Assembly (NCBI GenBank): GCA_046290225.1
Contig: JBKAGE010000077.1
Location: forward strand, 106,313-170,312
Length of the DNA: 64,000 bases
Source: Bradymonadia bacterium
Lineage (GTDB): Bacteria > Myxococcota_A > Bradymonadia > UBA7976 > UBA1532
Direction of reading: 5' to 3'
Position numbers and translations under genes: made by a program
The notes under the pieces: generated by a model
Told to the model about the DNA's origin: nothing
The model's database searches: none
What the model saw: only the letters and a program-made list of their open reading frames with translations
Shown: positions 43,511 to 47,656 of the stretch, piece after piece
Layout of the letters: every line of letters begins with the position of its first letter
Position numbering within the stretch: position 1 is the first letter of the stretch

Positions 43511-43792
43511 ATGACACAGCTCACGATCCACAAACTGGATGATGCCCTCGTACGCGCTCTCAGAGTCCGTGCGGCAGAGCGGGGCCACTCCATAGAAGCT
43601 GAGGTTCGCGCCATCCTGCATGAAGTCCTCATGTCACGCCCCGACGAGCGCGCCTTAGTCGATCACATTCTCGCGATGCCTACTGATGCCACCGAGGAAG
43701 ATCCATTCCCCAGGCTGAACGACGTATGCGACGTGATTCGCACCCGCACACGCATCGTGAATCCATTTGAATCAACAACTGAGCCGCAATGA
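43511..43792 (+). CDS. FitA/StbC-like ribbon-helix-helix antitoxin, possibly carrying a fused PIN-toxin tail
   Basis: QLTIHKLDDALVRALRVRAAERGHSIEAEVRAIL; tail RIVNPFE. Confidence 0.75.
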   Translation: MTQLTIHKLDDALVRALRVRAAERGHSIEAEVRAILHEVLMSRPDERALVDHILAMPTDATEEDPFPRLNDVCDVIRTRTRIVNPFESTTEPQ

Positions 43793-44406: not shown

Positions 44407-44529
44407 TTTGGCCTCACCCGGCCGCTCAACCTCGGACAAAAACTCGTCGAAAGATCTCAGCATCGGGAACGTGTTCCCCTGGAAGGCGTCAAACCAGTAC
44501 GCTGACCCTGCACTGCCGAGGAGACCGTG

Positions 44530-45867
44530 ATGTCCCTGCTCTCGACCACTCTGCGCCCCATGGCCCGCTTCGGCCTCCCTGCGATCCTGGGCTTCGCGGG
44601 TCTCGCCGGCTGCGGCGCTCGCCCTGCACCTCAGCAGGAGACCCCCAAACAAGTGGTGGAGATGGACTCGATGGTCATCGAGTACCAGGGAGAGCAGGAC
44701 GGCAAGTCGGTGACTGTGGCCTTCGACGATGCGGCGCTCTTCACCGAAGCCAAGGGCTACTTCGACGGTCAGAAGTTCGAAGAGGCCCAAGCAAGCTACG
44801 GCAAGCTGCTCAAGTATTTTCCCAAGAGCAGCTATGTGCACGCCGCGCTCTACAACCGGGGGCTGTGTTTCGAGCACTTGAAGCAGTACGGCGAGGCTGC
44901 CAACCACTTCCGCCGGTACATTCAGCTGTCGAAGAGCCTCGAAGACCAGCGCGACGGTGAGTTCCGCTGGGGCTACAACCTGATCAAGACCGAGGACTGG
45001 CCCACGGCCCTCGATCTCTACAATCGGCTGCTCAAAGATCCTCAGGGCCTCGGGGAGGCCGATCTCGCCGAGGCATATCTGCGCCGGGCCACGGCCCTCA
45101 CGGCCATGGATCAGTTCGGCGAGTCAGAACGGGATCTCAAGAAGTCGATGCGCCTCATCGAGAAGGCCTACAGCGGGGTCACCGAAGGCAACCCGCTCTA
45201 TGCCGAGGCCCACTTCCGCCGGGGCCAGATCTACGAGACGCTGTTCCGCAAAGTGCAGCTCAAGCTGCCCGCAGAGCAGATGAAGGTCGATCTACAGGAC
45301 AAGGTGCGTTTCTTCAGGCAGTCGCAGTCGAGCTATCTCGACGCCCTCAACGTACGCGAGCCCTTCTGGGCCACGGCGGCAGGCTTCAAGCTCGGCGAGC
45401 TGTACGAGGTGTTCTACATGCACATCTTGCAGTCCGAGGTGCCCGACGAGTTCGATGACGAGACCCGACGCTTCTACTTCGTCGAGCTCAAGCGCAAGCT
45501 GCGCCCCCTCATGGAGCAGGCGCTGACGATCTACGAGAAGAACATCAGCATGAGCCAGCGGGTGGGCACGGAGAACGAGTGGGTGAGCGAGACCGACGCC
45601 CGCATGGCCCGGCTGCGCGATCTCCTGGAGGCGAGTCTCAAGGAAGAGAAGGCCATGGAAGAAGAGGAGCGGGCCTACGAAGAGGCCCAGAAAGCCCGGA
45701 AGTCGAAGAAGGGCAAGGGCAAGCCTCAGGCTTCCCGGGTCGACCTGAACGCCGCGCCGGTTGCGAGCCGTGGTTTGACGCCCCGAGACATGCTGTCGCC
45801 GCGTCGGGCAGTGGCCCACCAACCTGCAGGCCGCCCGGGGAGTATCTCAAGTCGCGCAGGGGAGTAA
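44530..45867 (+). CDS. TPR-repeat lipoprotein
   Basis: Lipobox LAGC; TPR patterns (ALYNRGLCF, AYLRRA, AHFRRGQIY). Confidence 0.8.
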   Translation: MSLLSTTLRPMARFGLPAILGFAGLAGCGARPAPQQETPKQVVEMDSMVIEYQGEQDGKSVTVAFDDAALFTEAKGYFDGQKFEEAQASYGKLLKYFPKSSYVHAALYNRGLCFEHLKQYGEAANHFRRYIQLSKSLEDQRDGEFRWGYNLIKTEDWPTALDLYNRLLKDPQGLGEADLAEAYLRRATALTAMDQFGESERDLKKSMRLIEKAYSGVTEGNPLYAEAHFRRGQIYETLFRKVQLKLPAEQMKVDLQDKVRFFRQSQSSYLDALNVREPFWATAAGFKLGELYEVFYMHILQSEVPDEFDDETRRFYFVELKRKLRPLMEQALTIYEKNISMSQRVGTENEWVSETDARMARLRDLLEASLKEEKAMEEEERAYEEAQKARKSKKGKGKPQASRVDLNAAPVASRGLTPRDMLSPRRAVAHQPAGRPGSISSRAGE

Positions 45868-45920
45868 GAGGTCAGAACACAACGGCGGACCTCTAATTCG
45901 AACTTTTTTGCACCGACGGC

Positions 45921-45948
45921 TTGACTCTCATCTATCAACCACTACACT
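45921..45948 (+). promoter_or_regulatory. Putative sigma70 promoter
   Basis: TTGACT-16 nt-TACACT. Confidence 0.65.
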
Positions 45949-45988
45949 CACAATCACTCAACAGAAGAACACCACGGAGCCTTTCGAG

Positions 45989-46069
45989 ATGACAGCACTC
46001 TTCCACACTGATGATCATGGTCGATGGTGGCCCATGACCCGGAGTGGGGGTGCTTTCTCGACGTGTTGA
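45989..46069 (+). CDS. Putative Trp leader peptide MTALFHTDDHGRWWPMTRSGGAFSTC
   Basis: GGAG RBS at 45976-45979; TGG TGG at 46025-46030; followed by a terminator and a tRNA-Trp. Confidence 0.6.
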   Translation: MTALFHTDDHGRWWPMTRSGGAFSTC

Positions 46070-46093
46070 GCTGACTGGCTCCACGCTTCGTCC

Positions 46094-46132
46094 AAGCCCC
46101 CTCTGGCCATGTGCTCGAGGGGGTTTTCTTTT
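46094..46132 (+). terminator. Intrinsic terminator (attenuator)
   Basis: AAGCCCCCTC / GAGGGGGTTT stem followed by TCTTTT. Confidence 0.75.
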
Positions 46133-46206
46133 GCCTTTCAAGCCCTTGACCACACGCCCCCACCGCTCCGGGTCGCCCCCATGCCTCCACAATCAGGTGT
46201 CGTTAT

Positions 46207-46277
46207 AGGCCGGGCGCTGGGCGCAGGTAGGACTCCAAATCCAACCATGGAGGGTTCGATCCCCTCCCGGCCTGCCA
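46207..46277 (+). tRNA. tRNA-Trp(CCA), non-canonical with a minimal D-arm
   Basis: Acceptor AGGCCGG/CCGGCCT, G73 and encoded CCA; anticodon loop CTCCAAA; T-arm GAGGG-TTCGATC-CCCTC. Confidence 0.85.
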
Positions 46278-46433
46278 TCACTCATATTGATACATGCGCG
46301 CGACCCAAACATGTATTAAACGCAACACTTGCACCACACCACAAGTGTATCAAAACTGAGTACCCTCCACAGGGTTGACGTACGTACACATCCGGACCCA
46401 ACCTGCACCTCCCACGGATGCAGTGAGAGGCAC

Positions 46434-47048
46434 ATGCCCGCCATCGACGAGAAGACCCAGCGCAGGCTGGAAGAGATCTTGGGTCATGCCCTCCCAAAAA
46501 CCGCCTCAGGGGCTCTCGACCTGCGCGACGCCGATCTTCGAGAGGCTGAGCTCGAAGACGCCCACCTCCAAGGCGCCCACCTTCAAAAGGCCGACTTCCA
46601 AGACGCTCACCTGAACTGCGCGAACCTTCAGGCAGCCCAACTTCGCGGAGCAGACTTCCAATATGCTGATCTGAGTGACGTCGACTTTCGCGGCGCTGAT
46701 CTCCGAGATGCGGGCTTCGAAGACGCCGACATTCAAGAAGCTGATTTCCGAGGGGCCCACCTCACGGGGGCCACAGGGCTCCCCGACTGGGTGATGCGCG
46801 GGCTCGACTCGGCCGGGCGCTTCACGCTCACGCAGCTGGTCTCGGCCATCAGGTCAGGCTTCGGTGAACTCTCGGGGGCCAACCTGCGCGAAGCCGACCT
46901 TCGAGGGGTCGCGCTCCAACACGCTGATCTCTGGGGCGCCAACCTGCAGGGCGCAATCCGCAGCGCAGAGGATCTGGTCCCTGAAGGCTGGACAGCACAA
47001 CCCCGCTCAGATGATCCTGACAGCGTCTCCCTGCACAGAGCGAGCTGA
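46434..47048 (+). CDS. Pentapeptide repeat protein
   Basis: A(D/N)LxxA(D/N)F repeats. Confidence 0.9.
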   Translation: MPAIDEKTQRRLEEILGHALPKTASGALDLRDADLREAELEDAHLQGAHLQKADFQDAHLNCANLQAAQLRGADFQYADLSDVDFRGADLRDAGFEDADIQEADFRGAHLTGATGLPDWVMRGLDSAGRFTLTQLVSAIRSGFGELSGANLREADLRGVALQHADLWGANLQGAIRSAEDLVPEGWTAQPRSDDPDSVSLHRAS

Positions 47049-47050
47049 GG

Positions 47051-47656
47051 GTGAGGTGGCTCGACAACATCCGCCACGCCAAGCGACTGTATCGCGCTGA
47101 TCCCGGGGCGCATCTGGGCGACGTCGCTGTGCTCAAGTGCGACGCTTTTGGCGTAGACGTTCGGCCACCTCTCCGAGAAGCGCTGGCCCCTGTGCGCGGG
47201 TGGATCCCAGAGGTCGATTTGGATCGACTCGCCGAGCTGCCGCCGAACACGTTTGGCCACGCTCTGGCCCGCTTCATGCGCCAGAACCAGCTGCACCCCT
47301 TCGTCATCACCGACGAGATCCCTGATGACATGCGCCGGCGAAATGCCTTTGGCATCCGCTACGCCACGACCCACGACATGTTCCACGTGTTGCTGGACTT
47401 CGACACCACCTGGGTGGGCGAGATGGGCGTGCTGGCCTTCGCGGTGGGTCAACGCTACACACGCTGGCAGGCCCTCGGCGCTGCCCTCGCGTGGCTCATC
47501 TACTCGGTGCGCTCGGGCTTCAAGCTGCGAGCGCTCTGGCGCGCATGGCGTCGCGGACGCGCTGCGGGCCGTCGAGCCCCCTTCTTGTTGGGCCTGCGTC
47601 TGGAAGAGCGGTTCGAGAGCGACTTGAACGCTCTACGTCGAGAGCTGAGGCTTTGA
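47051..47656 (+). CDS. Coq4-like protein
   Basis: LAELPPNTFG and THDMFHVLLDFDTTWVGE (HDxxH..E) motif. Confidence 0.8.
   Translation: MRWLDNIRHAKRLYRADPGAHLGDVAVLKCDAFGVDVRPPLREALAPVRGWIPEVDLDRLAELPPNTFGHALARFMRQNQLHPFVITDEIPDDMRRRNAFGIRYATTHDMFHVLLDFDTTWVGEMGVLAFAVGQRYTRWQALGAALAWLIYSVRSGFKLRALWRAWRRGRAAGRRAPFLLGLRLEERFESDLNALRRELRL

Follow-up and report, generated by a model that had tools for sequence, protein, structure and literature searches.

A short stretch of a Bradymonadia genome, positions 45921-46277 of the 64,000-nucleotide piece of DNA analysed here (the window), carries in succession a promoter-like site, a short leader open reading frame (ORF) in which two Trp codons stand side by side, an intrinsic terminator and an extra tRNA-Trp gene of unusual structure, and appears to be laid out as one transcription unit (hereafter the Trp unit). 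The Trp unit is the single-tRNA member of a set of five paralogous leader/terminator modules, the other four of which gate arrays of 7-10 diverged, spare tRNA genes. Because each leader is written in codons that its own tRNAs read, the set looks like a feedback on the supply of tRNA, not on the supply of amino acids. For the Trp unit itself we think it reasonably likely that the leader works as a ribosome-mediated transcription attenuator that would sense the decoding of UGG; the attenuation claim is held more firmly for the array leaders as a class than for this one unit. The first-pass annotation of the window had presented the Trp unit as a lone curiosity, a framing that proved too narrow for one member of a genome-wide set of five.

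The four sister units all lie outside the window, elsewhere in the same genome (G000, to which contigs C14, C20, C34, C37, C42, C78 and C79 belong), and in each of them a promoter-like site, a short ORF and a strong terminator precede a tRNA array (Table 1). We refer to tRNA genes behind such a leader ORF and terminator as gated and to the remaining tRNA genes of G000 as ungated; the five units hold 1, 7, 7, 9 and 10 genes, giving 34 gated tRNAs in total. When 197 upstream ORFs at 50 tRNA clusters were screened without bias, the C42, C37 and C20 leaders came out with the three best enrichments in cognate amino acids. Codons readable by the leader's own array account for 17 of 31 in the C42 leader (3.7 expected, p 1e-8), 20 of 34 in the C37 leader (p 1.1e-6), 19 of 34 in the C20 leader (p 2e-6) and 21 of 58 in the C79 leader (p 0.023). 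When the five leaders were crossed with the five tRNA sets in a 5-by-5 matrix, the diagonal held the column maximum in all five columns, and the true pairing of leaders to arrays ranked first among the 120 permutations. Trp codons make up a fraction of 0.08 of the Trp leader, versus 0 to 0.02 of the four array leaders, three of which have none at all and the fourth a single one.

By sequence the four array leaders form two paralogous groups. In local alignments of leader DNA the Trp leader matches the C37 leader with a z-score of 12.8, none of 200 dinucleotide shuffles scoring as well, and the other pairs, judged against shuffles of the same kind, gave z-scores of 11.9 (C42-C79), 6.4 (C20-C79) and 3.1 (Trp-C79). 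The Trp and C37 leaders share the TCACTCAACA block after the -10 element, the heptamer GAGCTGA at both stop codons and a homologous terminator, and in the alignment the stop of the Trp ORF falls within 5 nucleotides (nt) of the C37 leader stop. The contexts of the ribosome-binding sites are shared more widely, with ACGGAGCC(T/C)TTC common to the Trp leader and the C20 array leader, and GGAGCCCTT common to the Trp and C79 leaders, in the latter ahead of a GTG start. From the paralogy with C37 and these shared contexts we conclude that, as far as sequence comparison can tell, the Trp unit is a re-tuned copy of an array leader and no isolated accident.

How such re-tuning may proceed can be followed in G023, a genome from another genus of the same family, where locus L077 (G023:C80:43262-46454) holds a homologue 77% identical to the C42 leader. 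The array behind it (Asp, Arg(gcg), Arg(ccg), Phe, Gln, Glu) has gained two tRNA-Arg genes relative to C42. The G023 leader, MFRFFDSQRLDIALFRREQERFERDIEGRKPS, has the same 32 codons with no insertion or deletion, and the untranslated part upstream of it carries a 14-nt gap. Within this constant frame the Arg codons have risen from one in C42 to seven in G023, all of them CGC, CGT or CGG and readable by the two tRNA-Arg of that genome, and the Gln codons have fallen from four to two. The terminator arms changed together, from CCCAC/GTGGG in C42 to CCCGT/ACGGG in G023, and a change of GGG to CGG within the ORF restores a pair in the helix GAGGGGCGG:CCGUCCCUC, which joins the last ORF codons to the 5' arm of the terminator around a stop-codon hairpin (helices taken from printed folds); this is also the topology of the 2:3 helix of the Trp unit described below. 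The T tract that follows the G023 terminator is poor (GTTCGTGC).

The tRNAs behind these leaders are mostly second versions of tRNAs that the genome holds elsewhere. A same-anticodon ungated copy exists for 32 of the 34, at 60-84% identity, and the diverged gated genes fit a reserve set. Twenty-eight of the 33 array tRNAs reach the Rfam gathering score for tRNA; those below it are both tRNA-Asp genes of the C42 array (L075 1070-1142 and 1930-2002) and three tRNAs of the C37 array. The C37 array also includes, among its Leu, Ser and Tyr genes, an 86-nt tRNA with a long variable arm and the anticodon UGT (Thr) (L074 1333-1418). In the C20 unit a dispersed repeat of ~160 nt lies between the leader terminator and the first tRNA (C20:1227-1430, minus strand), and a second terminator-like hairpin stands 24 nt ahead of that tRNA. 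A search with the C20 leader at E values up to 0.001 gave 21 matches in G000 and none in 27 family genomes; homologues of the C20 leader were found in none of 28 family genomes, and homologues of the C37 leader in none of 113 class genomes.

Returning to the window, the promoter, GGAG ribosome-binding site, 26-codon ORF with TGG TGG, terminator and tRNA with anticodon CCA that had been read from the DNA at the outset were each confirmed where they had been placed (Table 1). The consensus scan finds two promoter-like sites in 2.5 kb versus 0.4 expected. The leader is ~140 nt long, and its frame also opens from a TTG at 45908, giving a form of 53 amino acids (45908-46069) with which a protein search found no homologue. 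The terminator hairpin (46094-46126) folds with 10 pairs and an inner 3-pair stem at -21.2 kcal/mol; a simple terminator scan missed the site (46094-46132) because of its 13-nt loop, and the genome-wide scan picked it up. Few tRNA genes of G000, four of 96, have a terminator at most 250 nt upstream. At 45868-45909, right after the stop codon of the upstream TPR gene, a run of TTTTTT accompanies a weak hairpin (GAGGTC..GACCTC); the two probably form the terminator of the TPR gene, and the leader unit would therefore start afresh at 45921. Between the leader terminator and the tRNA the consensus scan lists no promoter-like site, and the sole candidate there for a separate tRNA promoter is a TTGACC hexamer (46146-46151) without a -10 match 16-18 nt downstream. 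None of 16 ungated single tRNA genes checked has a leader or terminator, and four of the 16 (Cys, Pro(ggg), Phe, Gly(ccc)) carry TTGACA at -42 to -50.

Table 1. Features of the Trp unit (positions in the window) and the four sister units of the same genome (positions on the contig named).
Feature	Position	Strand	Content and basis
Promoter-like site, sigma-70-type	45921..45948	+	TTGACT-N16-TACACT; consensus scan, 9/12 matches; predicted function
TCACTCAACA block directly after the -10 element	45954..45963	+	Same block in the same place in the C37 Leu/Ser/Tyr array leader; alignment, motif listing
Ribosome-binding site	45976..45979	+	GGAG, 9 nt ahead of ATG 45989; sequence
Leader ORF	45989..46069	+	26 codons, MTALFHTDDHGRWWPMTRSGGAFSTC, stop TGA 46067-46069; ORF list
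Segment 1	45994..46006	+	Pairs with segment 2 in the ribosome-free leader; duplex -13.9 kcal/mol; within the minimum-energy fold
Tandem Trp codons	46025..46030	+	TGG TGG, proposed stall site; sequence, ORF list
Segment 2	46046..46055	+	GGGGGUGCUU, inside the last ORF codons; 5' strand of the proposed antiterminator; folds
Hairpin holding the stop codon	46059..46087	+	Enclosed by the 2:3 helix; folds
Intrinsic terminator	46094..46132	+	Hairpin 46094-46126, T tract TTTTCTTTT 46124-46132; fold, genome-wide scans
TTGACC hexamer	46146..46151	+	61 nt ahead of the tRNA; sole candidate for a separate tRNA promoter; sequence
Supernumerary non-canonical tRNA-Trp(CCA)	46207..46277	+	68 nt + encoded CCA; ARAGORN, 71 nt
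C37 unit	C37:77269-79487	minus	Leu, Ser, Tyr, Ser, Leu, Ser, Tyr, Thr, Ser, Leu; leader MHFISNTSNSRLSSLDLRLSYCASLLLSALEGSSS
C42 unit	C42:92366-93950	minus	Asp, Glu, Phe, Gln, Asp, Glu, Gln; leader MFCFFDTDVLECALFQQEQERFEQDIEGGNLA
C20 unit	C20:227-1700	minus	Arg, Lys, Arg, Val, Ile, Arg, Lys, Arg, Val; leader MYVQNTIVNVRLKRRVKSVRRLRVIRVRREGGGTF
C79 unit	C79:72099-73750	minus	Ala, Ala, Gly, Thr, Gly, Thr, Thr; 59-codon leader frame rich in Ala, Gly, Thr

The leader RNA offers three alternative helices, as the first-pass annotation had proposed, with duplex energies of -13.9 (segments 1 and 2, 1:2), -13.3 (2:3) and -17.1 kcal/mol (3:4, the terminator). In the 2:3 helix GGGGG-U-GCUU (46046-46055) pairs with AAGCCCCCC (46094-46102); the predicted pairing of segment 2 with the 5' arm of the terminator is thus present, and only the start given for the segment, 46042, had to be moved, since the folded helix starts at 46046. 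A consensus fold with the C37 leader places a hairpin where the Trp leader has the one that holds its stop codon (46059-46087). Only with everything up to 46043 blocked does the 2:3 helix become the minimum-energy fold of the nascent RNA.

If the Trp leader is an attenuator, fast decoding of UGG would carry the ribosome to the stop codon (46067-46069), where it would melt the stop-codon hairpin and cover segment 2 (46046-55). With segment 2 covered, the terminator hairpin (46094-46126) would form and RNA polymerase would stop before the tRNA. Slow decoding of UGG, as when usable charged tRNA-Trp is scarce, would instead stall the ribosome at 46025-46030, leaving segment 2 free to pair with the terminator 5' arm (46094-46102) and allowing read-through into the tRNA gene. 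When no ribosome is on the leader, segment 1 (45994-46006) would hold segment 2, so that termination would be the default. We infer each of these steps (leader translation, stalling, antitermination, and the transcription and charging of the tRNA) from the DNA alone. Since the product would be the very tRNA needed by the sensor codon, the loop would usefully answer a shortage of tRNA, not a shortage of tryptophan.

The genome also has a classical leader of this kind. The trpE gene of G000 is preceded by MNTLLTHADVIEAASKGSWWWWISSEGVRVSG, a 32-codon ORF with four Trp codons in a row, and then by a terminator (contig C79, ~227115-226960, minus strand; outside the window), from which it follows that the organism uses Trp leader-peptide attenuation. 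The last Trp codon lies 10 codons from the stop in the trpE leader versus 12 in the Trp unit, and the claim that the Trp unit has a trpL-like geometry is supported by this leader of similar geometry in the same genome. We considered the Trp leader as a duplicate of the G000 trpL and rejected the idea, as the two have no sequence similarity. A pentapeptide-repeat gene lies just upstream of the C79 trpE leader.

The gated gene itself was correctly described as an extra, atypical tRNA-Trp, being a second copy, of non-canonical structure, beside a canonical 74-nt tRNA-Trp that adjoins tRNA-Thr on contig C78 and is 70% identical to it. The odd copy has a reduced D arm (13-nt D region), a 4-nt variable loop, A1-U72, G73, and an anticodon stem of 6 pairs with one A-A mismatch. 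An Rfam search gave no row for the tRNA family RF00005 at this gene and just a tRNA-Sec match of 30.5 bits, under the gathering score of 47. In 27 family genomes a covariance model of the odd tRNA found only canonical tRNA-Trp genes of 76-77 nt (34-46 bits), and in 113 class genomes two true homologues, in G084 (66.8 bits) and G088 (46.8 bits), both from another family of the class and each with a canonical tRNA-Trp as well. The model found no further odd tRNA-Trp in 151 phylum genomes, and a degenerate pattern of D arm and anticodon, run over 401 phylum genomes, matched G000 only.

Comparison of the three odd tRNAs (G000, G084, G088) shows standard pairs in 53 of 54 stem cells, with double changes at pairs 4, 5 and 7 of the acceptor stem, 1 and 2 of the T stem and 4 and 6 of the anticodon stem, so that compensatory changes occur in all three long stems. 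Invariant in all three are A1-U72, G2-C71, G3-C70, G73 and the loop CUCCAAA, and all three keep a canonical T loop and the GG of the D loop. The bacterial Trp identity set consists of the anticodon CCA, G73, A1-U72, G2-C71 and G3-C70 (PMC9976931; what we say of this and the other papers cited refers to the portion of their text available), and the odd tRNA-Trp carries every one of these elements, invariant in the three homologues. The invariant identity elements and compensated stems therefore argue for a conserved, compact tRNA that is under selection as a cloverleaf and probably chargeable with Trp. A dedicated second tryptophanyl-tRNA synthetase (TrpRS) or pyrrolysyl-tRNA synthetase (PylRS) for it was sought and dismissed, with one trpS gene in G000, one in G084, two in G088 and no PylS. 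ARAGORN also reports, at C14:27995-28067 (minus strand), a 73-nt tRNA with the anticodon CUA (labelled Pyl), which would read amber; no PylS gene in G000 passes the family cut-off.

The two distant loci (G084:C246 and G088:C7) share a neighbourhood of genes for a TSP3-repeat protein, the tRNA, an HNH endonuclease, a ParB_N protein and a class III aminotransferase, with the odd tRNA 60-125 nt upstream of the endonuclease gene on the same strand. An intrinsic terminator stands ahead of both tRNAs, and the two loci share a promoter-like block further upstream; an upstream terminator is thus present in all three known members of the odd-tRNA family. In G088 just 20 nt separate the terminator hairpin from the tRNA, too few for a promoter in between, and this tRNA would therefore be made only by read-through. 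G084 has one more terminator-like hairpin, downstream of the first terminator and ahead of the tRNA. An origin of the odd tRNA as an att site or prophage relic was rejected, given the lack of integrase or phage genes nearby and the syntenic, chromosomal setting in G084 and G088.

Taken alone, the anatomy of the Trp unit is suggestive and only weakly beyond chance, its weight coming from the paralogues, and a number of results count against attenuation at this unit. Equilibrium folds are always won by the terminator, and blocking 46010-46043 alone leaves the 1:2 helix in place. A scan of the whole genome of G000 gave 461 terminator-like sites, with 337 short ORFs that stop shortly before such a site, and across such sites the best upstream pairing of the terminator 5' arm averages -15.0 +/- 4.7 kcal/mol. 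The 2:3 pairing of the Trp unit, with an energy ordinary for G000, ranks 90-101 of 456, and the genuine trpL of G000 ranks 75; the presence of an antiterminator therefore says little, and we discarded the statistics of such pairings as evidence because they fail to discriminate even this genuine trpL. Tandem Trp codons occur in 11 distinct ORFs of the 337 in this G+C-rich genome, and the two Trp codons among 25 in the leader are non-significant on composition alone (p 0.09). (An ORF with three successive Trp codons and a terminator-like site on C34 was set aside as a false positive, as it lies inside a coding gene in another frame.) The G+C content at third codon positions (GC3) of the Trp leader ORF is 0.52, without coding-type codon bias, versus 0.88 in the genuine trpL, and the TTGACC hexamer could belong to an unconventional promoter.

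Comparative evidence at the locus itself points the same way. The region of the Trp unit is absent from 40 relatives; orthologues of the upstream TPR gene occur in 26 of 27 family genomes, with non-syntenic flanks, and none of 27 such loci fetched from these 26 genomes carries a tRNA. No match came from a collection of genome contigs searched with exact words of 36 and 29 nt, from metagenome contigs searched with the TPR protein and a 21-mer, or from viral contigs searched with an 18-mer, collections that may lack records very close to G000. Among the genomes and contigs covered there was thus no close relative with the locus. At the homologous tRNA loci of G084 and G088 the expected conservation of the tandem Trp codons failed to appear: their leaders are alike to each other only (z 11.6) and unrelated to the Trp leader, and their ORFs have isolated single Trp codons, no tandem pair and no codon runs, with a GC3 of 0.65-0.74 versus 0.90-0.95 in the neighbouring HNH genes. 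Nor do these ORFs qualify as homologous peptides, 137 to 202 of 500 shuffles scoring as well. Conservation of an ORF and its regulatory codons across orthologous loci is thus seen in one paralogous module (C42/G023) and not for the Trp unit. Of the attenuator as first proposed, the unit structure stands, now joined by codon-matched paralogues; conservation of the Trp codons finds no support in the loci compared, and the 2:3 helix exists with a fitting geometry but is not statistically distinctive.

These same results could mean that the Trp unit contains no attenuator, the ORF with its Trp pair being open by chance in an array-type leader that was copied and has decayed, and the tRNA coming from an unrecognised promoter of its own or from constitutive leak-through; the terminator would then merely end a short non-functional or small-RNA-like transcript or back up the terminator of the upstream gene. 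The frequency of such ORFs before terminator-like sites (11/337), the GC3 of 0.52, the lack of a conserved Trp pair in G084 and G088, the hexamer at 46146-46151 and the commonness of alternative pairings in G000 all agree with this account. It is harder to reconcile with a GGAG-N9-ATG context kept as in C20, with a stop codon at most 5 nt from that of C37, and with the scarcity of Trp codons in the four sister leaders, of which three have none and the fourth has one. Moreover, TTGACC lacks a -10 element and the scan recovered no promoter-like site there, and the ORFs of the sister units are under selection for codon content. On balance we regard the lack of an attenuator as unlikely.

A different doubt concerns the product, which may be a tRNA-like regulatory RNA or a non-ribosomal substrate RNA, as proposed for tRNAOther; such a role would be compatible with either reading of the leader. 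The reduced D arm, the 6-pair anticodon stem and the missing RF00005 match would suit it, as would the position of the tRNA just upstream of a same-strand HNH endonuclease gene in G084 and G088, and tRNAOther likewise has a Trp anticodon, poor charging and a role outside translation (PMC3399842). However, the TrpRS identity elements, T loop, D-loop GG and CUCCAAA loop are kept in three genomes, and the gene is gated in the same manner as the 33 array tRNAs, of which Rfam scores 28 as canonical, so a product that does not decode seems improbable to us.

Least probable is a translation-coupled attenuator that reports general ribosome slowing (antibiotics, ribosome damage, global starvation) with the Trp codons incidental, for although any stall upstream of 46043 would free segment 2, the G084 and G088 leaders have no codon runs and the spare tRNA operon of Anabaena is induced by general translational stress (PMC8421152), five leaders each enriched for a different codon set matching their own tRNAs, and a G023 leader whose codons changed together with its array, are hard to explain unless codon identity matters. 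Known RNA elements were not recovered either: Rfam searches with E values up to 1 gave no Trp_leader (RF00513) match at 44500-47500, and the idea that the leaders contain a T-box or belong to another known RNA family was rejected, since none matched in that stretch or in the G084 and G088 loci (L051 and L052) at the same threshold.

Some neighbouring features of the window deserve mention. Two A+T-rich inverted repeats of 7 base pairs (ATACATG..CATGTAT at 46290-46316 and ACACTTG..CAAGTGT at 46325-46348) sit between the tRNA and a pentapeptide-repeat gene (46437-47048), of which they may be operator or promoter elements. Further upstream, 43511-43792 holds a small gene for a FitA-like ribbon-helix-helix antitoxin, followed by an ORF for a membrane-protein-like product of 205 amino acids with no Pfam match.

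Leader-peptide attenuation is textbook knowledge for amino-acid biosynthesis operons and, lately, for some aminoacyl-tRNA synthetase genes. The gating of a tRNA closes the loop differently, in that the sensor reads the product itself, and such a loop is sensible if it is the tRNA that runs short (through anticodon nuclease cleavage, damage or a change in demand) and not the amino acid. As a tentative extension, which we consider possible without leaning on it, G000 may carry an almost complete second set of diverged tRNAs (34 genes, among them a compact tRNA-Trp of a new structural type) locked behind five codon-matched leaders, which would measure decoding failure per codon group and release the matching reserves, either as a homeostat of tRNA supply or as a backup against tRNA-targeting toxins. 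The odd tRNA-Trp would then owe resistance to such attack, or altered decoding, to its D arm and 6-pair anticodon stem. With five differently tuned copies in G000, a natural co-variation experiment in G023 and, in Trp, a single codon as the simplest case for mutation, the idea lends itself to direct tests. A conserved compact architecture of tRNA-Trp, missed by the Rfam tRNA model, also comes to light at this locus.

Among known systems the E. coli trpL type is the natural reference, and the Trp unit is like it in having a promoter, a short ORF with adjacent Trp codons, a terminator and a possible antiterminator that uses the terminator 5' arm. It differs in gating a tRNA instead of a biosynthetic operon, and in having its stop codon downstream of segment 2, in a hairpin enclosed by the 2:3 helix. 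The leader peptides of the branched-chain and threonine operons are multivalent, mixing several amino acids, and the sister leaders are mixed in a like manner (Asp/Glu/Phe/Gln; Leu/Ser/Tyr; Arg/Lys/Val/Ile; Ala/Gly/Thr), but in G000 the mix mirrors the anticodons of the tRNA array. For the product, tRNAPyl and mammalian mitochondrial tRNA-Ser(UCN) have a six-pair anticodon stem, a short variable loop, a small D arm and few or no linker bases. The odd tRNA-Trp shares those compact features, whereas its Trp identity, its canonical T loop and the lack of a PylRS gene in G000 set it apart.

The Bacillus cereus tRNAOther is described as a pseudo-tRNA that flanks an island, is under Fur control and acts on a T box (PMC3399842); like the odd tRNA-Trp it is an extra, atypical tRNA with a CCA anticodon beside a normal tRNA-Trp (PMC3399842), but the odd tRNA-Trp has kept its Trp identity elements and shows compensatory conservation. 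The trn operon of Anabaena offers a parallel to the arrays, as a housekeeping tRNA set is there accompanied by a diverged, supernumerary and presumably inducible one (PMC8421152; array surveys PMC4758250, PMC5966550). Control of that operon is placed at the promoter, through direct repeats thought to bind a repressor, and the words 'terminator' and 'leader' are absent from the main text of the paper (PMC8421152), whereas the arrays of G000, short at 7-10 genes, are divided according to amino-acid group and stand gated behind leader ORFs. With 1-10 tRNA genes, the gated units of G000 also fall short of the definition of an array unit, at least 20 tRNA genes at 2 per kb (PMC4758250).

Published leader-peptide attenuation of tRNA genes or arrays was not found in the open literature, supplements aside, and the terms 'tRNA gene' and 'tRNA operon' are absent from the main text of an attenuator survey (PMC2965389). 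The nearest published cases found are the leader-peptide attenuators of Streptomyces before trpS (trpL2), leuS (leuL2), alaS (alaL) and thrS (thrL) (PMC8079986). There, as proposed here, codons report the charging or decoding of one tRNA and control the decoding machinery, not an amino-acid pathway; the Streptomyces leaders, however, gate protein genes, mostly on leaderless transcripts, whereas the product of the Trp unit is a tRNA (PMC8079986).

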